64,000 nucleotides of DNA from an uncultured Methanosarcinales archaeon (GTDB taxonomy: Archaea; Nanobdellota; Nanobdellia; Woesearchaeales; CAZYIM01), in NCBI GenBank assembly GCA_964647565.1, contig CAZYIM010000001.1, positions 84,184 to 148,183 on the forward strand, written 5' to 3'. Of this stretch, positions 8,467 to 37,709 are shown one piece after another. The notes under the pieces were generated by a model. It was not told where the DNA came from. It worked only from the letters and a program-made list of their open reading frames with translations, and searched no databases. The stretch's first letter is position 1. Every line of letters begins with the position of its first letter. The position numbers and the translations under genes are program-made.

Positions 8467-8991
8467 ATGAACGTAAAAGAAGCTATTGAAAAAAGAAGGA
8501 GTATTAGGAAGTATGATGACAAAGAGGTTACCGAAGAGGTTTTAAGGGAGCTTATCGACGCTGCTAGACTGGCGCCGTCAGGCAACAATGCCCAGCCATG
8601 GTATTTCAAGATAGTTACCAGTGCAGAGGACAAAAAGAAACTGAAGGATAGTAATATGTATCCGCAGGACTTTGTCTATACTGCACCAGTGCTTATTATT
8701 TGTTGTGCAGATCCAAGCGTCTATCCTGCTGGCGAATTCATCAAGGGCATGGATCATCCAAACCAGGTAAGGGCCATAAGGGACCTGTCGTTGGCTTGCG
8801 AGAATTTAGTGTTAAGAGCTGTTGAGCTTGGACTTGGCACCTGCTATATTGGATGGATGGACAAGGAAAAGGTCAAGGATCTGCTGGATATACCAAAGGA
8901 TTACATTGTTCCCTACACAATAACTGTAGGCTATCCTGCTGGTGGAGCCGGTGAGCCAAAGAAGAAGAGTGCTGACGATATTTTACTTTAG
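8467..8991 (+). CDS. Nitroreductase family protein
   Basis: RRSIRKY, APSGNNAQPW, GLGTCYIG, TVGYP. Confidence 0.93.
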   Translation: MNVKEAIEKRRSIRKYDDKEVTEEVLRELIDAARLAPSGNNAQPWYFKIVTSAEDKKKLKDSNMYPQDFVYTAPVLIICCADPSVYPAGEFIKGMDHPNQVRAIRDLSLACENLVLRAVELGLGTCYIGWMDKEKVKDLLDIPKDYIVPYTITVGYPAGGAGEPKKKSADDILL

Positions 8992-9013
8992 TTGAACATA
9001 TTCAGGTGGTTAA

Positions 9014-9481
9014 ATGCAAGAGCTATACATAGATGATATTATTGAGAAGACTAAGAAATTAAGCAAAGAGAAGAAGCATAAGAAGACAAAATTCTATAAC
9101 TTAATTGGTGAAGTCGTGCCTGATGAATGCCACATCCATCTTTCTACCAAAGAATGCACTATAATCATATTTGACGAAAAAAAACAGAGCTACACGAAAG
9201 CAGCAGTAGATTATAAATCAGGATCATATCAAGGTAGAACAATTCTCCCGACAGATGAAATTTTCAGTCTCGATAACTATAAAGCTACCTCCTCAATTAT
9301 TCCAAGCTATTGCTTTAATTATCCTTCTAATAAATGGACTGTTGGCCCGTTTATTCTGTTTGTAAAAAAAATATTCACACACAATCACTCTCCTGTTGCT
9401 GAAATCGGACAGTTGATAGATAAAGATTATCCTGTAAAGTATTACGCACCAAGAACAGATAAGATACCAACAATAGAATAA
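9014..9481 (+). CDS. IPTIE-array paralogue 1 (unknown function)
   Basis: MQELYIDD...RTDKIPTIE; homologous to next six ORFs. Confidence 0.85.
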   Translation: MQELYIDDIIEKTKKLSKEKKHKKTKFYNLIGEVVPDECHIHLSTKECTIIIFDEKKQSYTKAAVDYKSGSYQGRTILPTDEIFSLDNYKATSSIIPSYCFNYPSNKWTVGPFILFVKKIFTHNHSPVAEIGQLIDKDYPVKYYAPRTDKIPTIE

Positions 9482-9483
9482 AA

Positions 9484-9936
9484 ATGCAAGAGCTATACAT
9501 AGATGATGTGATTGAGAAAGCACATGATCTAGAAAAACAAAAGAAGTATAAGAAAAAGATTTTCACAGAACGTCTCTTGGCTTTGATGCCAAAAAAAGGT
9601 CACATAGTACTCAGCGGCAAGAGGGGAGATATCATCATTTATGATCAGAAAAGCCAGTCCTATAGAAAAGCTTTATTTGATATCGAAGACGGCAATCCGA
9701 TTGCAGGAAACCAACTTTTTGAGATCGAAGATTACAAACCGTCCATACCAATAACTAATGAATACTTGATGGATGAGTTAACCACTGCTAAAGAAGCTGC
9801 AAATTTTATTTGTTTTTTAATAGGATTACATGACAAATACAAATCTCCAGTCATTGAGTTCGGCAGGAGAGCAAACAGATATTTTCCTATAAAGGCTTAC
9901 TCTCAAAGAACAGACAGGATACCAACAATAGAATAA
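9484..9936 (+). CDS. IPTIE-array paralogue 2
   Basis: MQELYIDD...RTDRIPTIE. Confidence 0.85.
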   Translation: MQELYIDDVIEKAHDLEKQKKYKKKIFTERLLALMPKKGHIVLSGKRGDIIIYDQKSQSYRKALFDIEDGNPIAGNQLFEIEDYKPSIPITNEYLMDELTTAKEAANFICFLIGLHDKYKSPVIEFGRRANRYFPIKAYSQRTDRIPTIE

Positions 9937-9938
9937 AA

Positions 9939-10430
9939 ATGGAAATACCAACAATAGATGACTGGCTGGAAAAAGCAGATCAATTAAGCCAAAAGAAAAA
10001 ATATAAGAACAAAAACCTAGTTGAGAGACTGGGCAATATAATGCCTAAAAAAGGTAAGTTTTACCTGTCCGGTAAGCAAGGCACTGTCATATATTTTAAT
10101 ATTCCAAGTGAGAGCTATAAGCAAGCCATCCTGGGATTCAGTAATAAACAAGAGGCCCAGTTCGAATATAATTTAGAATATATCTTTCCGGGAGAAAAAT
10201 CATTCAGTCTTGAAGGCTATAAAGCAACAATTCCAATAACCAACAAAGAATTTTTTTATTATCCCTATAAGTCAGAAGAAAAGCACAATGGTGCTCAATT
10301 CCTTTATTTTATCCTTAAGTTGTTCAAGGAGTACAAATCACCAATCATGCAGATAGGACAAAAAAAGAACAGGTTCTATCCGTTCCAGTTCTACGGCCCA
10401 AGAAAAGACAAGATACCAACAATAGAATAA
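9939..10430 (+). CDS. IPTIE-array paralogue 3
   Basis: MEIPTIDD...RKDKIPTIE. Confidence 0.85.
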   Translation: MEIPTIDDWLEKADQLSQKKKYKNKNLVERLGNIMPKKGKFYLSGKQGTVIYFNIPSESYKQAILGFSNKQEAQFEYNLEYIFPGEKSFSLEGYKATIPITNKEFFYYPYKSEEKHNGAQFLYFILKLFKEYKSPIMQIGQKKNRFYPFQFYGPRKDKIPTIE

Positions 10431-10432
10431 AA

Positions 10433-10924
10433 ATGGAAATACCAACAATAGATGATTACATTGAAAAAGCAGAAGACCTTAAAAAAGAGAAAAGGTACAA
10501 GAAGATGGGAATATGGCAGAGACTTTGCTATGTAATGCCTAAAAAGGGCAAGTGCCATCTGTCTGGAAAGCACGGCACTGTAATCATCTATGACGAAGAA
10601 AGCCAGAGCTACAGGGATGCTATCTTATTTCATTTTGATAAACCAGAAGAATCATATAATTATAGATCACAGTATTTCCTTGCAGGAGAAAAGACCTTTA
10701 GTTTGGAAGGTTATAAGATAGATACTCCAATTATAAATAGAGAAGAAAGGGGGACTCCTAGTGAAGAAAATGTAAACAAATCTGTAGTGCATTTCCTCTA
10801 TTTCTTCCTTAATTTGTTTGAGGAGTTCAAATCACCTGTCATGCAGATAGGCCAGTTTGAGAACCGGTTTTTCCCCTTCCAATTCTACTCATTACGTACA
10901 GATAAGATACCGACAATAGAATGA
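10433..10924 (+). CDS. IPTIE-array paralogue 4
   Basis: MEIPTIDD...RTDKIPTIE. Confidence 0.85.
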   Translation: MEIPTIDDYIEKAEDLKKEKRYKKMGIWQRLCYVMPKKGKCHLSGKHGTVIIYDEESQSYRDAILFHFDKPEESYNYRSQYFLAGEKTFSLEGYKIDTPIINREERGTPSEENVNKSVVHFLYFFLNLFEEFKSPVMQIGQFENRFFPFQFYSLRTDKIPTIE

Positions 10925-10943
10925 AAATATATAAGGTGATAAA

Positions 10944-11516
10944 ATGCAACAAGCAATATTAAACGATTTTTATATGTTAATCATAGACCTGTCAGCAAAA
11001 GCAGAAGAAGAAAAGGAAAACAAGCCCAAGGGAAAAAAACAGCTAGGTTTTAAGTTTCTGAATAAGAAAGATGTTTCAAAATCTGAGACTAACGAAATTT
11101 CCAATAAGATTGATGAGCTGCTAAAAAATAAGAAATTTCTGCTAAAGACTGATTGGGTAACTTATGTTATAGCAGACGAAGAAACAAAGACCTATAGAAT
11201 TGCAGAATTTGACACAATCAAAGGCCAGCCATGCCCTTCAGGACATTTGGTCAATATGAATGATTACAAGCCGGATACAGAGATGTTTATCACAGGTTTC
11301 CCTTGTTCAGAATATCGAAAGGATGGCGGTCCAAAGAATAGGGAGTCAAATACATTAAATTTTTTCGAATCACTTTTAAAGATGCACAGAGCTGAGATTA
11401 TAGAGATAGGAACAAATGAGACATTAGTGTCTACCCAAGCAATAAAAAAAAGATTCTATCCTATGAAATTCTATGGTCAAAGAACAGACAGGATACCAAC
11501 AATAGAGGAGATCTAA
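10944..11516 (+). CDS. IPTIE-array paralogue 5 (longer N-terminus)
   Basis: Ends RTDRIPTIEEI; SD-like AGGTGA upstream. Confidence 0.85.
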   Translation: MQQAILNDFYMLIIDLSAKAEEEKENKPKGKKQLGFKFLNKKDVSKSETNEISNKIDELLKNKKFLLKTDWVTYVIADEETKTYRIAEFDTIKGQPCPSGHLVNMNDYKPDTEMFITGFPCSEYRKDGGPKNRESNTLNFFESLLKMHRAEIIEIGTNETLVSTQAIKKRFYPMKFYGQRTDRIPTIEEI

Positions 11517-12007
11517 TGAAAATGGAAGAACTATATATTGATGATGTGATTGAAAGGGCAAGAAAACTTCAAAAAGATAAGAAGATGAAGAAGAAAACAG
11601 TAGCGCAGCTTATACAGTCTGTATTGCCAACAGAAGGCCATCTCTATCTGTCAGGAGAGCTTGGGACTGTGATTATTTTCGACGATGAAAACAAGATCTA
11701 TAAAGAGGCTGTCTTGGATGTTCGAAAATGCCAACCACTTCCCGGCAATAAGATATTTAGTCTTGCTAATCACAAGTCCAACTCTCCTATAGAGACTGCT
11801 TATTATGATGCAGCAGGAAATTGGGGATATGATGATAAAGATCGCAGGTTACACGCCACAAGTCTAATATTATCCCTAAGGAAAGCACAACATGATTACG
11901 ACGGCCAGGTTATGGAATTTAGCCGGACCATTGGTGACAGTCATAATAGGCAGATATTATTCAAGACTTACATCCTAGACACAGGCAAGATACCAACAAT
12001 AGAATGA
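11516..12007 (+). CDS. IPTIE-array paralogue 6
   Basis: MEELYIDD...DTGKIPTIE. Confidence 0.85.
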   Translation: MKMEELYIDDVIERARKLQKDKKMKKKTVAQLIQSVLPTEGHLYLSGELGTVIIFDDENKIYKEAVLDVRKCQPLPGNKIFSLANHKSNSPIETAYYDAAGNWGYDDKDRRLHATSLILSLRKAQHDYDGQVMEFSRTIGDSHNRQILFKTYILDTGKIPTIE

Positions 12008-12573
12008 AAACACTTAAGATGGCAAAAATCAATCAGATCTATGGTTCATTGCTCGGATACAAGACAGGAAAGAAGTATCTGGAAAAGGATATCTCAGAGA
12101 TTAAATCACTTGACGATCTTTCAGATATGTCAGTTAAAATGTTCAACCAGAGAAAATTTCGTAAAAAGAAGATCAATAAAATCATGGAGATCTTGGTCCC
12201 AAAAGAAGAGGAGCTGCTGTTGAGCTGGAACGGTTCGACAATCATAATGTATGATAAAGAGCGAAAGAACATGTACACTGCTGCTCTTAATGTCGAGAGA
12301 TGTTGGCCATTGGTCACTGATCAGGTTGTAAACCTTGGCAATCATAGCCCCATCTCAGAGTTGAGCACTGAGATGTTCAAATGCAAGGATAGTATTATCG
12401 CAGGTTCCAATCATAAGAACTCTGTAAGATATGTCTTGAAACTGATGAACATAATGAAAAGATATAATGCTCCGTTCATCCAGATAAATGATCACAAGGG
12501 AGATAATTTTTATAGGCGTTTTGCAAGCAAGGCATATTATCTCAACACAGATAGGATTCCGACAATAGAATAG
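12004..12573 (+). CDS. IPTIE-array paralogue 7 (longer N-terminus)
   Basis: Ends NTDRIPTIE; ATGA overlap with paralogue 6. Confidence 0.85.
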   Translation: MKTLKMAKINQIYGSLLGYKTGKKYLEKDISEIKSLDDLSDMSVKMFNQRKFRKKKINKIMEILVPKEEELLLSWNGSTIIMYDKERKNMYTAALNVERCWPLVTDQVVNLGNHSPISELSTEMFKCKDSIIAGSNHKNSVRYVLKLMNIMKRYNAPFIQINDHKGDNFYRRFASKAYYLNTDRIPTIE

Positions 12574-22573: not shown

Positions 22574-22648
22574 TAATTATTTTTTATTTTTTTTAATTTT
22601 TTTCTTAATCAAAAGTTTTTTAACCATATCCTGCTTCTTAACACTCAC

Positions 22649-22744
22649 GCCAAGGTCGCATAATCCGGTATTGCGGCGGTCTCGAACAATCTTTCGAGCT
22701 AACCGCTCCCTTGGGGATTCTCGGTTCGAATCCGAGCCTTGGCG
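22649..22744 (+). tRNA. tRNA-Ser(CGA) with 14-nt intron (22687-22700) at position 37/38
   Basis: Acceptor GCCAAGG/CCTTGGC plus G73; anticodon stem GCGGT/ACCGC, anticodon CGA 22683-22685; long variable arm; T-loop TTCGAAT; BHB with CTCG/CGAG central helix; CCA not encoded. Confidence 0.93.
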
Positions 22745-22805
22745 TAACGAAGTGAAGTCAAGCTCGGGCCCAGCAACTCTGTTGCTCGTGTCCGAGCCTT
22801 GGCGT
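22731..22805 (+). repeat. 15-bp direct repeat of tRNA 3' end
   Basis: TCCGAGCCTTGGCGT at 22731-22745 and 22791-22805. Confidence 0.85.
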
Positions 22806-33594: not shown

Positions 33595-33903
33595 TTATTT
33601 AGTCAGAATGATGCTTTCAAGCTGTCGCTTTATTTTGCCTGCTTCCTTTCGGTCATTGTTGGGTTCAAAGATCTCAAAATGAAGATGCTCATGCTCGTAA
33701 TGCAACTTCAGTCTGCAGCCGTCTTTGAGATTATATTCCTGACGTGCAGGTATTCCCTTAAAAGAATTCTGTTCCTTCTCGCCTTTATAATCTTCATAGT
33801 TCAGGCTGTTTTCCTCGAGATATTCCTCAAGTTTTGACCAGCGATCATCATGTATCAGGATATAGTTGATGATCTTGTCAATGATGGGTTTTTCCTTGCT
33901 CAT
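33595..33903 (-). CDS. Hypothetical protein
   Basis: ATGA overlap with upstream ORF. Confidence 0.6.
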   Translation of the reverse strand: MSKEKPIIDKIINYILIHDDRWSKLEEYLEENSLNYEDYKGEKEQNSFKGIPARQEYNLKDGCRLKLHYEHEHLHFEIFEPNNDRKEAGKIKRQLESIILTK

Positions 33904-34238
33904 TTGTTTAGCTCTATAAGTTGACATATGGGTCGTCTAATTTGAGTTGCCTGTCTCCAGCCTAAAGCTGAATAGACACCGACTTGTAAAGAATTATCTC
34001 TCCTGGTCAGGTAGATTTCTGAAGCTGTTTGGGGTAAATCAAAAATATATGTGGTCTGTATGACCTGGCCAGGCATATTTGATGATAGGTTGGCCTTCTT
34101 GTTGATTTTCAGCCTCTTTTTTCCACCCTGATCGTTAATATAACTCTCAATTTGCGGCCATAACGAACCAATCGTGTCTGCACCTAACTTCTTATAAGAT
34201 TTTGATGTTTGTGTTTTTTTCAAAATTGCCGGCGGCAT
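33900..34238 (-). CDS. Hypothetical protein
   Basis: ATG 34238 lies ~23 nt past TATA 34261-34268. Confidence 0.6.
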   Translation of the reverse strand: MPPAILKKTQTSKSYKKLGADTIGSLWPQIESYINDQGGKKRLKINKKANLSSNMPGQVIQTTYIFDLPQTASEIYLTRRDNSLQVGVYSALGWRQATQIRRPICQLIELNK

Positions 34239-34425
34239 GCCAACAAAAAAGATATTCCCCTTTATAAATATTCTCATTATTTACCACTTAAAAGGGGTGA
34301 TTAAGCACACTAGAAAAGATTTATCATAAAAATCATTTTGATTTCTATGACTTCGCTTTGCTCGTTCCTCAACTTTTGCTATATGCTAGAAAAATTTTAT
34401 AAATACTACCGATTTCTACTACTAC

Positions 34426-34491
34426 ATGGCTACTGTAATAGCAAAAGAGTTAAAAACTATTGCCAGTATTATTTCTATCATTATCATGTGA
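34426..34491 (+). CDS. Putative Ile-rich leader peptide MATVIAKELKTIASIISIIIM
   Basis: ATG ~22 nt downstream of TATA TTTATAAA (34396-34403); 7 of 21 codons Ile; 68 nt upstream of ileS. Confidence 0.7.
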   Translation: MATVIAKELKTIASIISIIIM

Positions 34492-34559
34492 TTAGCTGGT
34501 TCTTTCTAGGACTGGCAGCCGAATGATGGTAGAATAAAGAAGATAAAGGTGCATTTCAA

Positions 34560-37500
34560 ATGAAAATCGAAAAGAACTATGATTTCAAAAAGATAGAAAA
34601 CGAGGTCCATGCGCTCTGGAAGCGAATAAAGCTGTTGGAGCTTTGGCAAAAACAGAATGCAAAGGGCGAGAAATACTTTTTGCTGGACGGACCGCCGTAT
34701 GCCAACTATGTCCCGCATGTAGGTCATATCAGGAATACTGTCTTTAAGGACATGTATATCAGGATCGCTTTTCAGGAAGGCAGGAATGTCTTCTTCCAGC
34801 CTGGTTTTGACACCCACGGCCTGCCTATCGAGAATATGGTGGAAAAAAAGCTTAAGCTAACATCCAAAAAGGATATCCAGAAGATGGGCATAAGAAAATT
34901 CATGAAAGAGTGCAGGGACAGCGCCGCCCTAAACAAGGACCTCTGGCTGGAAGCCTACAGGAACCTGGGTTCAGTATATGCATGGAACGATCCCTATCTG
35001 ACTTATGAGAACAGCTATATCGAATCTACCTGGTGGTCTTTCAAGCAACTCTGGGACAAGGGCCAAACGTATGAGGGTAAGAGACCTGTATTCTGGTGTC
35101 CAAAGTGTGAAACTGCTTTAGCAGGCTACGAGGCTACAGACTCTTATAAGAATGTTTCAGACCCTTCTGTGATTGTAAGATTCAAGGTAAAGGGAACCCA
35201 GGACGACTATCTATTAGTCTTCACAACAACACCCTGGACTCTTCCTGCCAATGCAGCTATTGCAGTCAAGAGTGATGAGGATTATGTTAAGGTCAAGACA
35301 GAGCAGTGGGATAACCTCATACTGGCCAAGAACTGCCTAAAACTACTAGACCAAATAAAGGTCAAATATGATATTATTGAGACCTTCAAGGGTGTGAAAC
35401 TTGACGGAATGAAATACGAATCATTATTGGATGTACCCTGTCAAAAAGAGCTGCAAAATAATCCAAATGCATTAAGGGTCTATTTGTCAATCCCTATCCT
35501 AAAAGAAAGAGTGGCCTCAAAGGTTGGAGCAAAGAAGGGCATCACAACAGGTGATGTATTTGAGGATTTTGTCACAGTCGAAGACGGAACAGGTATGGTC
35601 CATACTGCGCCAGGACATGGAAAGACAGACAATATGGTAGGTCTTCACTATAAGATTCCTGAGATCAGTCCCCTTGATGATGAATGCAAGTTCACAGATG
35701 AGGCTGGCAAGTATCAGGGCATGTTTGTCAAGGATGCAGACCATGTGATCGCAGAAGACATGCATCAGCAAAAGAAGCTTGTGCACTTTTCAAGGATAGA
35801 GCACTCCTATCCATTATGCTGGAGATGCAAAGCACCTTTAATTTTCAGAATGTCCAACCAATGGTTTTTGAAAATCGATCCTGTAAGGGAAAAGATGTTA
35901 AAGGCTAATGAAGAGGTCAACTGGCAGCCTGAATTTGCAAGAGACAGGTTTAGGGACTGGGTGGCCAATGCAGAGGACTGGAACTTCTCAAGGCAGAGAT
36001 ACTGGGGCATCCCTATCCCTATCTGGAAGTGTGAATGCGGAGATATGAAAGCTATTGGCTCTGTAGAGGAACTAAACAAGGATGCTGTTAAGAAAGTTGA
36101 TGAAAAGTTCGATCTTCATACTGTCAATGATGTGAAATTAAAATGTAAGTGCGGAAAGGAGATGACCCGGATCAACGAGATCTTTGATGTCTGGTATGAC
36201 TCTGGAAGCTCACCTTATGCAGCTATGGGATATCCGTTCAAGAACAAGGAACTTTTCGAAAGCCACTTCCCTGTAGACAGGATTAATGAATCCCAGGACC
36301 AGGTAAGAGGTTGGTTCTATTCCCTTATGTTCTGCGGCATATCTGTCTTTGGCAAGGCCCCATACAAAACAGTGTCCATGCCTGGCTGGGTAGTTGACAA
36401 GATGGGCGATAAGATGTCAAAATCAGTAGGCAATGTGGTCTTTGCAAAGGATGCACTGAATGATTTTGGTGCAGATGCACTACGCTTCTATTATTGCTGG
36501 GATATTGCAGCATATAGTCTGCAGAAGTTCAACACTGAAACCATAAAGACTGAAGTCTCTAAGTTATTCAATATTCTCTGGAACCTGCACAACTTCGTAT
36601 TGAATCATGGCGAGCAGATGAAAGAGCCAAAAACTGAGAAGATAGAGGACAAATGGATTCTCTCAAGATTAAATAGTGTAATCGGTTCTGCTAGGACGAA
36701 CCTGGCAAGCTATGAGATACACCTTGCTGGCAGGAACATCTATGACTTTATTTTGAACGACTTATCAAGGAGCTATGTACAGATCATAAGGGACAGGTTG
36801 GAATATGACCTTAATCCTATATATCTGATAAATTATTGCTTGAAGAAGATGGTGACGCTGATGGCACCGATATCTCCGTTCGTAACAGAGCAAATCTATC
36901 AGGACCTTAAGCAGGTCAATGATGGATTGAAGGAGTCTGTTCATCTTGAACTATTGCCAGACGCTGGCAAGTCAGATGAGAACTTGGAGAATGAGATGAA
37001 GGCTGTCTTTGATATCATGGGTGCTGTACTCTCTGCAAGAGACAAAAGACAATTAGGAGTAAGATGGCCCTTGCAAAAAGTTGTTGTGGATACTGCGGAC
37101 AAGACAGTTGTCAAGGCTTTGACAGATCTAAAAGAGCTGTTTTTAAAACAGGTCAACATCAAGGATGTCAAGTTTGAATCCTTTAAGGTAAATCTGAAGA
37201 TCAAGCCCAACTATAGGAATCTTGGAAAGGCCTTTGGCCAGGAAACCGCAGACGTCATCGGCGCTATAAAAGAAGCTGAAAATGCTATTGTCAAAGAGTT
37301 AGAAGCTGGCAAGGAAGAGTTTTCTGTTGGCAAGTACAAGATCAAGAAGGATCATCTTGAGATCACGAAAGAGACTTCCGAGGATTTTGAGATGGCTGAA
37401 TTCAAGAGCGGTTGTGTCTTTATTGAGACTCATCTGACTCCTGAATTAGAGGCAGAAGGCTTTGCGCGGGAGGTTATGCGAAGGGTTCAACAGCTTAGAA

Positions 37501-37709
37501 AGAAAGCTGATCTGCACAAGAGCAACATGATAAAGCTAGCTGTTGAGACTGATATGCATGACACTTTAGGCAAGTTCGCAGATGAGATCAAGGGCAAGGT
37601 CGGTGCAGAAGAGATCTTGATAGTTGAAAAAAGCGACAAAAAATATGCATATATTTCAGAAGAAAAAGTGAAAGGCAGGGTTTTCAAGATACTCCTGGAA
37701 AAAGTATAA
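34560..37709 (+). CDS. ileS: Isoleucyl-tRNA synthetase (archaeal/eukaryote-type IleRS2)
   Basis: DGPPYAN..HVGH, GFDTHGLPIE, TTTPWTLP.N, DWNFSRQRYWG, DQVRGWFY, KMSKS, EGFAREV.RR.Q..RK. Confidence 0.97.
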   Translation: MKIEKNYDFKKIENEVHALWKRIKLLELWQKQNAKGEKYFLLDGPPYANYVPHVGHIRNTVFKDMYIRIAFQEGRNVFFQPGFDTHGLPIENMVEKKLKLTSKKDIQKMGIRKFMKECRDSAALNKDLWLEAYRNLGSVYAWNDPYLTYENSYIESTWWSFKQLWDKGQTYEGKRPVFWCPKCETALAGYEATDSYKNVSDPSVIVRFKVKGTQDDYLLVFTTTPWTLPANAAIAVKSDEDYVKVKTEQWDNLILAKNCLKLLDQIKVKYDIIETFKGVKLDGMKYESLLDVPCQKELQNNPNALRVYLSIPILKERVASKVGAKKGITTGDVFEDFVTVEDGTGMVHTAPGHGKTDNMVGLHYKIPEISPLDDECKFTDEAGKYQGMFVKDADHVIAEDMHQQKKLVHFSRIEHSYPLCWRCKAPLIFRMSNQWFLKIDPVREKMLKANEEVNWQPEFARDRFRDWVANAEDWNFSRQRYWGIPIPIWKCECGDMKAIGSVEELNKDAVKKVDEKFDLHTVNDVKLKCKCGKEMTRINEIFDVWYDSGSSPYAAMGYPFKNKELFESHFPVDRINESQDQVRGWFYSLMFCGISVFGKAPYKTVSMPGWVVDKMGDKMSKSVGNVVFAKDALNDFGADALRFYYCWDIAAYSLQKFNTETIKTEVSKLFNILWNLHNFVLNHGEQMKEPKTEKIEDKWILSRLNSVIGSARTNLASYEIHLAGRNIYDFILNDLSRSYVQIIRDRLEYDLNPIYLINYCLKKMVTLMAPISPFVTEQIYQDLKQVNDGLKESVHLELLPDAGKSDENLENEMKAVFDIMGAVLSARDKRQLGVRWPLQKVVVDTADKTVVKALTDLKELFLKQVNIKDVKFESFKVNLKIKPNYRNLGKAFGQETADVIGAIKEAENAIVKELEAGKEEFSVGKYKIKKDHLEITKETSEDFEMAEFKSGCVFIETHLTPELEAEGFAREVMRRVQQLRKKADLHKSNMIKLAVETDMHDTLGKFADEIKGKVGAEEILIVEKSDKKYAYISEEKVKGRVFKILLEKV

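Follow-up and report, generated by a model that had tools for sequence, protein, structure and literature searches.

Upstream of the isoleucyl-tRNA synthetase gene ileS, in a 64,000-nucleotide (nt) stretch of archaeal DNA (contig CAZYIM010000001.1 of assembly GCA_964647565.1, positions 84,184 to 148,183; hereafter the window, numbered from its first letter), lies a short upstream open reading frame (uORF) that ends in a run of isoleucine (Ile) codons and is followed closely by an RNA hairpin. Judging from its sequence and that of its counterparts elsewhere, we read this uORF (34426-34491, +) as a leader-peptide gene, a functional sensor of the cognate amino acid acting on ileS, with a probability of roughly 0.7. 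The element recurs in related genomes with a common build, and its amino acid is that of the synthetase encoded downstream; it belongs to a set of putative cognate leader peptides, for Ile, Thr, Val and Leu, that precede aminoacyl-tRNA synthetase (aaRS) genes in DPANN archaea of the Woesearchaeota/Pacearchaeota type. An initial annotation of the window had proposed a cognate-codon leader peptide before an archaeal aaRS gene, and comparison across these four amino acids strongly supports that core idea.

The ileS gene itself (34560-37709, +) encodes an isoleucine--tRNA ligase of 1049 amino acids (aa) with the Pfam domains tRNA-synt_1, Anticodon_1 and DUF5915 and a match of 804.5 bits to NCBIfam TIGR00392. 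Its upstream neighbour, an ORF at 33900-34277 with no family match, lies on the opposite strand, and the 282-nt spacer between the two is therefore a divergent promoter region. Within this spacer a TATA box, TTTATAAA (34396-34403, +), starts exactly 30 nt before ATG 34426, which opens the uORF of 21 codons plus TGA, MATVIAKELKTIASIISIIIM*. Seven of the 21 codons specify Ile, five of these within codons 15-20, and it is the top Ile-tailed uORF of the genome. The putative sensor run, ATT ATT TCT ATC ATT ATC (I I S I I I; 34468-34485, +), is followed by ATG and TGA and, 3 nt past the stop codon, by a hairpin of 9 bp with three G-U pairs and a UUCU loop (34495-34516, +; minimum-energy fold, -11.2 kcal/mol). 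The uORF ends 68 nt short of ileS, which has a Shine–Dalgarno (SD) sequence, AAGGTG (34546-34551, +), 8 nt ahead of its ATG and, in the window, no TATA box at -30; this arrangement suggests that ileS is transcribed together with the leader, as the second cistron. No hairpin-plus-U-tract terminator lies between the uORF and ileS, and no U-tract follows the hairpin at 34495-34516. The initial annotation had described these features correctly: its TATA box, ORF, helices, hairpin, SD and ileS are all present where it placed them, translation bears out both the ORF from ATG 34426 to 34491 and its count of seven Ile among 21 codons, and a classical terminator is indeed missing.

The spacing between TATA box and uORF is that of an ordinary promoter and start codon in these organisms. 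TATA-like octamers start at -31, -30 and -29 of the ATG in 105, 167 and 110, respectively, of 2500 crude ORFs of this genome, and the related metagenome loci (L100-L173) have the same sharp peak ahead of their start codons, so that most promoter-proximal genes appear to be leaderless. The distance of exactly 30 nt before ATG 34426 is the modal one for this genome, and the view that the TATA box is aimed at this ATG rather than at ileS is supported by the genome-wide peak at -29 to -31. The ileS uORF thus looks like a leaderless cistron starting at the 5' end of the transcript.

Enrichment for the cognate amino acid was assessed across the whole genome, using a crude set of 2397 ORFs of at least 100 aa and, within 300 nt upstream of the 1410 genes having a spacer of at least 40 nt, 1635 uORFs of 6-45 codons starting with ATG, ranked by the count of one amino acid within their last seven codons. 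The ileS uORF alone among the 1635 carried at least five Ile in these codons, and eleven other entries carried four. A score of at least five for any one amino acid occurred at eight distinct loci genome-wide, three of which precede a synthetase gene, and at all three the synthetase is the cognate one: Ile x5 before ileS, MKNNIENKSNVGSKHFFLASSTTTTTTI (Thr x6) before thrS on contig C48 and MQTDCYNYLLALLLLV (Leu x5) before leuS on contig C4. Given a single cognate target in 1410 genes, at least three cognate placements among eight would be expected with a probability of ~2e-8. In a list drawn up independently of gene annotation, comprising 106 intergenic short ORFs whose ATG lies ~30 nt past a TATA-like octamer, the ileS leader, the leuS leader and a Val-rich short ORF tied for the top score of 5/7. 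The initial annotation had allowed that the Ile content might be no greater than in other short ORFs of similar composition; in this genome the ileS uORF is unique among the 1635 and joint top of the 106.

The same annotation had suggested scanning the other aaRS genes of the genome, and cognate-rich uORFs were found at thrS and leuS besides ileS. This survey covered 22 aaRS-like genes recognised through ten Pfam families; no cognate uORF was seen at 18 of the 22, that is at all but thrS, ileS, leuS and pheS, the region upstream of valS holding a gap of N. The leuS leader (L032, contig C4 of this genome, ~904-1024, +) has a TATA box at -30 and the same order of run, stop and hairpin as that of ileS (post-stop stem AGACCCU/AGGGUCU), with a T6 tract ~12 nt further on and then an SD, and is the most terminator-like of the leaders. 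At thrS (L031, contig C48, 2250-2640, -) the uORF has an SD of its own (GGTGG). The 299 nt between this uORF and thrS contain a strongly structured, GC-rich stretch (fold z = -3.04) that matches no Rfam family, and a 52-nt piece of it recurs, at 83% identity, in another intergenic spacer of the same genome (C27:9637-9688); the stretch may be an inserted repeat or a small RNA motif of no recognised kind. The Phe-rich ORFs at pheS, in this genome (TTG start) and at loci L315 and L319, were rejected as leaders since they have no TATA box, and those of this genome and L319 lie inside a T-rich stretch, by our reading the terminator of a conserved gene lying upstream.

Two leaderless-type short ORFs found at other genes of this genome have tails of a comparable kind. 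The Val-rich ORF of the tied top scores, MSTTNLISIVLILVVVVLV (L247, contig C15, ~1103-1246, +), has a tail of Val x5 followed at once by a hairpin (GCAAGGCC/GGGCUUUGC) and then an SD, a build like that of the aaRS leaders, and precedes an ORF of 117 aa with no Pfam match and no evident link to valine. The other, MTGLICYYCCC (L248, contig C30, 1-170, -), has a Cys-rich tail, is followed by T5 and T7 tracts, a hairpin, an SD and a gene starting MIYENVLDTI that is cut by the contig end, and recalls the poly-Cys short ORFs of mycobacteria. The N-terminus MIYENVLDTI resembles that of cysteine synthase, which the gene may encode.

Recurrence was examined in 40 relative genomes of one order, representing 40 different families, in metagenome loci and in named genomes. 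An exploratory look at 30 ileS loci found ATG uORFs ending in an Ile run at five besides this genome: MLQTLVASMIII (L002, genome G034), MEQKIEILISII (L013, G020), MTGSCSIRNGISIII (L016, G019), MNETIVYIIGIVASLVSIIIIIS (L028, G005) and a similar uORF at L006 that lies 310 nt away from ileS. For the hold-out sets the criterion was fixed in advance as an ATG uORF of 8-40 codons with its stop no more than 200 nt from the gene and one amino acid in at least three of its last six codons. The metagenome hold-out comprised 80 loci, of which 69 were usable after 11 with a missing N-terminus or a short flank were dropped, and yielded nine Ile-tailed uORFs along with three Leu-, two Glu- and one Lys-tailed; seven of the nine were clear Ile leaders (MAKQNSQSILQIAIII, MAADNLKIGKIVSAGIILSKISIIII, MHFIEEEALAKIII, MTADNKINGVIISVISIII, MARDKSFNFGIIPAIASIIIII, MAVRNLNFIGKISPAIALSIIIK and MAVDNLHIGKVVSAGIIHSIISIII). 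The named-genome hold-out, 73 loci with 70 usable and 60 remaining once 10 duplicates of earlier loci were removed, contained six Ile-tailed uORFs, two of them clear (L183 and L217). After pooling, with duplicates removed and this genome excluded, Ile-tailed uORFs stood before 19/155 ileS genes and before none of 55 thrS and leuS genes (Fisher p = 0.0023). When a TATA box at about -30 of the uORF ATG was also required, the count was 11/155 for Ile and zero for every other amino acid.

Cognate pairing was also seen at thrS and valS in the relatives. Thr-tailed uORFs occurred at 4/28 thrS genes (MASKKTTTTN, MMNKNINLNSVLFSLVVSITTTNTTTTTTTTA, MVVNNIFETQVLTTTTTTA and MVLDYLFEIIFDLPLYSSTTTTTC) as against 1/182 other upstream regions (p = 0.0012). 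Genome G020, which has both an Ile and a Thr leader, also carries MICVVVVVA (Val x5) 57 nt ahead of valS with a TATA box at -31. No His-tailed uORF was found before 30 hisS genes and no uORF with at least two Trp before 28 trpS genes.

The Ile leaders share a common build, which was examined in 15 candidates, or in 14 once the doubtful L215 was dropped. By manual reading of the upstream stretches, a TATA box lies at -28 to -32 of the uORF ATG in 12/14. The run always occupies the last three to six codons of the uORF, and in 12/14 leaders TCT followed by three Ile codons stands just ahead of the stop, the preceding Ser being always TCT, although in this genome just 26% of Ser codons are TCT. 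Codons within the runs vary synonymously (ATT/ATC/ATA for Ile, ACA/ACC/ACT/ACG for Thr and GTA/GTT/GTG for Val), which argues for selection on the encoded amino acid, whilst the invariance of UCU points to a further constraint on RNA or decoding.

In all 15 candidates but L215, the hairpin starts 2-7 nt away from the stop codon's first base. In the 14 leaders its energy ranges from -5.4 to -15.3 kcal/mol (z -0.9 to -4.5 against dinucleotide shuffles); its stem sequence varies from leader to leader. A hairpin of -8 kcal/mol or better is present in 11/14 leaders compared with 4-5% of ordinary gene 3' flanks (binomial 1.5e-12). Such flanks in this genome carry tracts of at least five T in 36-38% of cases, without hairpins. 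Its rarity at ordinary gene ends marks the hairpin as specific to the leader and not as a generic terminator. L136 and L153 share a register and, by manual reading of the alignment, differ by two fully compensatory pair changes. A MAFFT alignment of the 14 leaders was anchored simply at the stop codon, and the alignment of five related leader hairpins was too poor for RNAalifold to inform on covariation. A pyrimidine or T tract after the stop was considered as a terminator and rejected, its excess over controls being only modest: a 10-nt post-stop window with at least eight pyrimidines occurs in 67% of 24 leaders and in 40% of 1191 control uORFs.

Thr and Val leaders differ from this pattern in that L048, L054 and L266 have a short hairpin across the stop codon itself (ACAGC-RUAA-GCUGU and GGUGGC-GUGA-GCCACU), followed by a U-rich stretch. 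Three leaders share the motif CAUUGUU, namely those of thrS and valS in G020 and that of thrS in this genome; the last of these and the G020 valS leader also have UCAUUGUUCUCU in common.

From these elements we infer translation of the uORF, ribosome stalling, control of ileS in cis, and an output step with its sign. Transcription would begin ~30 nt past the TATA box at 34396, with the uORF ATG at or near the 5' end and translated as a leaderless cistron, and the same mRNA would continue into ileS, which has its own SD. Charged tRNA-Ile would be sensed at the last codons of the uORF (I I S I I I M stop): when it is scarce a ribosome would stall with its leading edge against the post-stop hairpin, and when it is plentiful the ribosome would unwind the hairpin, terminate and depart. 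Whether the ribosome is stalled or released would decide the fate of the downstream RNA and hence the amount of IleRS. The leading edge of a ribosome lies ~12-13 nt past the first base of the A-site codon. A ribosome halted with the first Ile codon of the terminal run in its A site would abut the base of the hairpin, and the last two to three codons and the stop would need unwinding; by this footprint geometry, the run and the hairpin would thus be placed to interact through the ribosome. Granted a sensor of this kind, the likeliest output, though itself less probable than not, is that the stalled or departing ribosome controls what happens at the hairpin or in the RNA immediately beyond it, allowing or preventing premature 3'-end formation or processing, conceivably through polymerase pausing and factor-dependent termination of the FttA/aCPSF1 type, or alternatively through protection from 5'-to-3' decay. 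Homeostasis and the bacterial analogues suggest that the sign would be more IleRS at low Ile-tRNA.

Several results, concerning distribution, promoters and RNA folding, weigh against a sensor acting on ileS in this way. The expectation in the initial annotation that Ile-rich uORFs would precede related ileS genes held in so far as they recur (19/155 against 0/55), and did not hold throughout: about 88% of the surveyed ileS upstream regions lack the element and its distribution is patchy. Eleven of the closest ileS genes have no Ile-run ORF in any frame within 260 nt upstream; these genes are 48-69% identical over the N-terminal 400 residues (nine measured), and several have a TATA box at about -30 of ileS itself. 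In 27 relatives no counterpart of the leuS leader was found ahead of leuS. The related genomes are not independent of one another, so that the p-values are overstated, and the statement that the ileS, thrS and leuS leaders share one genome depends on the binning of 86 contigs that include duplicated hisS and AspRS-like genes. The ileS hairpin has no U-tract after it, and the ordinary terminators of this genome are T-tracts without hairpins, so that this hairpin is not recognisable as a terminator.

Promoter arrangement in some relatives bears on whether the uORF is linked to ileS at all. In nine Pacearchaeota-like relatives (L116, L119, L129, L136, L137, L147, L153, L183 and L217) manual reading found a second TATA box past the uORF and its hairpin, ~29-38 nt ahead of the ATG of ileS, a distance close to that usual for leaderless genes, and several of these ileS genes have no SD. 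The uORF could therefore be a separate small transcription unit there, and in this two-promoter form either read-through adds to a basal level of ileS expression, or the unit interferes with the ileS promoter, or it is an independent small gene. Extended to all the loci, the last of these would make the uORF a gene for a hydrophobic, for example membrane, peptide in a short unit of its own closed by the hairpin, its position before ileS being meaningless. Such a gene would fit the N-terminal parts of several leaders, which look conserved (MA.DN..G..SAGII), and the Val-rich short ORF of L247, which has the same run-stop-hairpin build ahead of a gene with no evident link to valine. We nevertheless consider it improbable, given that the run and the synthetase downstream agree in their amino acid (Ile, Thr, Val or Leu), that a tail of Thr6-8 is not a membrane segment, that ileS in the window has an SD and no TATA box of its own, and that the placement ahead of ileS recurs over many families.

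At the RNA level, the competing helices drawn in the initial annotation are all present in the sequence. TGCCAGT (34461-34467, +) is the perfect complement of ACTGGCA (34511-34517) in the 3' arm of the hairpin and could form a competing helix, which is absent from the minimum-energy fold of the ileS leader. An 'anti-run', ATGATGGTAGAA (34523-34534, +), pairs with the Ile-codon stretch 34473-34484 over 12 bp with two G-U pairs (RNAduplex, -12.6 kcal/mol); 1.3% of 300 shuffles did as well (p ~0.013). It includes the start of a mini-ORF of four codons, ATG ATG GTA GAA TAA (34523-34537, ATGATGGTAGAATAA). The energy of the whole-leader fold is ordinary (z = -1.05), the pairing of run and anti-run beats shuffles in only 4/14 leaders (mean z -1.1), and among the competing helices it is the post-stop hairpin that was found again in relatives. 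Pairing between the run and RNA further downstream is real in this leader, and across leaders it is a weak tendency and not a conserved helix.

These pairings could serve translational attenuation of the mycobacterial poly-Cys type, in which a free Ile run would pair with 34523-34534 and hide the ileS SD or the start of the mini-ORF, and a stalled ribosome would release them and raise ileS translation. Besides the 12-bp duplex, similar pairings in L147, L153 and L217 speak for this, as do SD-like motifs (GAGG/GGAG) or an ATG after the hairpin in most Ile leaders, an ATG lying between hairpin and ileS in 10/14, and the precedent of the leaderless poly-Cys short ORFs of mycobacteria, as outlined by Canestrari et al. 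(10.1101/834739). Ensemble folding with a masked 30-nt ribosome footprint speaks against it. The ileS SD and AUG are predicted to be mostly unpaired in each state modelled, whether the leader is free (probability 0.63), has a ribosome stalled on the run (0.67) or has one at the stop (0.65), and across 21 leaders a stalled ribosome brings no consistent change in SD accessibility, so that the switch in the RNA proposed in the initial annotation is not established, and a translational output finds no support in these predictions. A relay through the mini-ORF past the hairpin was likewise rejected, the accessibility of its start being 0.55 as against 0.57 and rising in 2/10 leaders. With the run pairing also non-significant in 10/14 leaders, we regard translational attenuation as an unlikely explanation. 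The remaining alternative, a chance ORF left open by accident after a TATA box in AT-rich intergenic DNA, might draw on the 38% G+C of the genome and its 8% of Ile codons, on the eleven other uORF entries with four Ile in their last seven codons and on the unremarkable whole-leader fold, but is close to refuted by the sole Ile tail of at least five among 1635 uORFs, the cognate leaders at thrS and leuS (p ~2e-8), a hold-out enrichment confined to Ile and ileS, and the conserved hairpin.

Leader-peptide attenuation is a textbook bacterial mechanism, and a cognate leader peptide before ileS is best set beside its known forms. In the pheST attenuator of Escherichia coli, with its leader peptide pheM, and in the trp, his, leu, thr and ilv attenuators, an ORF rich in cognate codons lies upstream of the regulated gene. 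The elements described here resemble these in having a cognate-rich short ORF directly upstream with the run near its end; the target of pheST is also an aaRS, and Ile, Thr, Val and Leu are among the amino acids of the classical attenuators. They differ in belonging to an archaeon, in a uORF that appears leaderless (TATA at -30) and not SD-led, in a single hairpin that abuts the stop, and in that neither a U-tract terminator hairpin nor conserved antiterminator/terminator alternatives were found here. In attenuation of the tnaC/Rho type, a ribosome arrested at the end of the leader ORF blocks a termination factor near the stop codon. The likeness here lies in the sensing codons at the very end of the ORF and the candidate regulatory RNA element immediately past the stop; unlike in that system, no factor site was identified in the leaders, and the putative signal would be starvation for a cognate codon, whereas tnaC responds to a free amino acid sensed inside the ribosome.

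In mycobacteria, poly-Cys leaderless short ORFs control Cys-metabolic operons by unmasking a downstream ribosome-binding site (RBS), according to the report on them (Canestrari et al., 10.1101/834739). As described there, they share with the archaeal leaders a leaderless sensory first cistron, a cognate run towards its 3' end and occurrence at several loci per genome (a 'ribulon'); they serve one amino acid, whereas here each amino acid goes with its own aaRS, RBS unmasking is not predicted, and the domain of life is another. T-boxes bind uncharged tRNA directly, with no need of translation, and translational T-boxes of ileS occur in Actinobacteria (PMC1262725). Like the leader proposed here, they couple expression of an aaRS gene, ileS included, to the charging of its cognate tRNA through a 5' leader; unlike them, the ileS leader gave no match to the T-box covariance model or to any other Rfam family. 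In the window no Rfam match reached the gathering score, and at E up to 10 only chance-level matches appeared in 34200-34700, as was also the case at the thrS, leuS and pheS loci. The closest analogue is thus in build the mycobacterial poly-Cys ORFs, in logic the pheST attenuator of E. coli and in task the T-box.

The ileS element, read as a leader-peptide sensor, is an archaeal form of leader-peptide control with an unusual build, a leaderless uORF and a hairpin at the stop, and its output mechanism probably differs from those of known leader-peptide systems. A wider reading, which we put forward tentatively and as somewhat more doubtful than not, is that ileS, thrS, valS and leuS form a DPANN 'ribulon', each with its own leaderless sensory mini-ORF, in which the stalled ribosome would act directly on a hairpin or U-rich signal abutting the stop, with no antiterminator/terminator switch and through machinery specific to archaea. 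That machinery might be ribosome-RNA polymerase coupling together with FttA/aCPSF1 cleavage, or 5'-to-3' decay. If this were true, it would have no mechanistic counterpart in bacteria and would be the first ribosome-mediated attenuation in the archaeal domain. Archaea use FttA/aCPSF1 and not Rho, FttA recognising U-rich nascent RNA and being bridged to the polymerase by Spt5, as stated in a 2026 review of termination across domains (PMC13675443), a text in which the word stem 'attenuat' never occurs. Papers on archaeal small proteomes from ribosome profiling (Ribo-seq) raise uORFs merely as a possibility, as far as their accessible portions go. A full-text literature search, judged from listings and abstracts, found no leader-peptide attenuator for archaea or for archaeal aaRS genes, though subscription-only papers and supplements could hold a precedent.

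To our knowledge, the regulation of aminoacyl-tRNA synthetase genes in archaea is largely uncharted, and an element that is defined in sequence, recurrent and cognate-specific makes it testable. The unusual build, with a leaderless uORF and a hairpin touching the stop, occurs in both one-promoter and two-promoter forms. Host-dependent DPANN archaea are generally described as poor in amino-acid biosynthesis, and for such cells the sensing of tRNA charging may be a main readout of host supply. The order of TATA box, 30 nt, ATG, cognate run, stop and hairpin also offers a signature for sensory short ORFs in other archaeal genomes.

The window belongs to a bin of 86 contigs, 2.68 Mb in total, with 38% G+C and Ile as 8% of codons. 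Its genes include a thermosome and an archaeal family-B DNA polymerase (PolB), and the window is therefore archaeal. The nearest named relatives of its ileS are in metagenome-assembled genomes labelled Candidatus Woesearchaeota, Nanoarchaeia or Nanoarchaeota, and Pacearchaeota, which fits the DPANN assignment made in the initial annotation. The bin holds two hisS genes (contigs C58 and C8), a second, partial thrS (C79; 53% identical) and five matches to class II synthetases of the Asp/Asn/Lys type (contigs C5, C15, C25 and C58), one of which sits in an ORF of 952 aa that also matches part of the AlaRS family. These duplicated synthetases reflect either paralogy, in what would then be an unusually large DPANN genome (2.68 Mb), or the composite nature of the bin. 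Elsewhere in the window, ARAGORN reports a tRNA-like gene of 98 nt (22648-22745, +) with an undetermined four-base anticodon, cgaa, which may be an intron-containing or otherwise unusual tRNA, and eight consecutive, tightly packed ORFs on the same strand (8467-12573, +), similar in size at 150-190 aa each, look like a tandem array of paralogous small genes.

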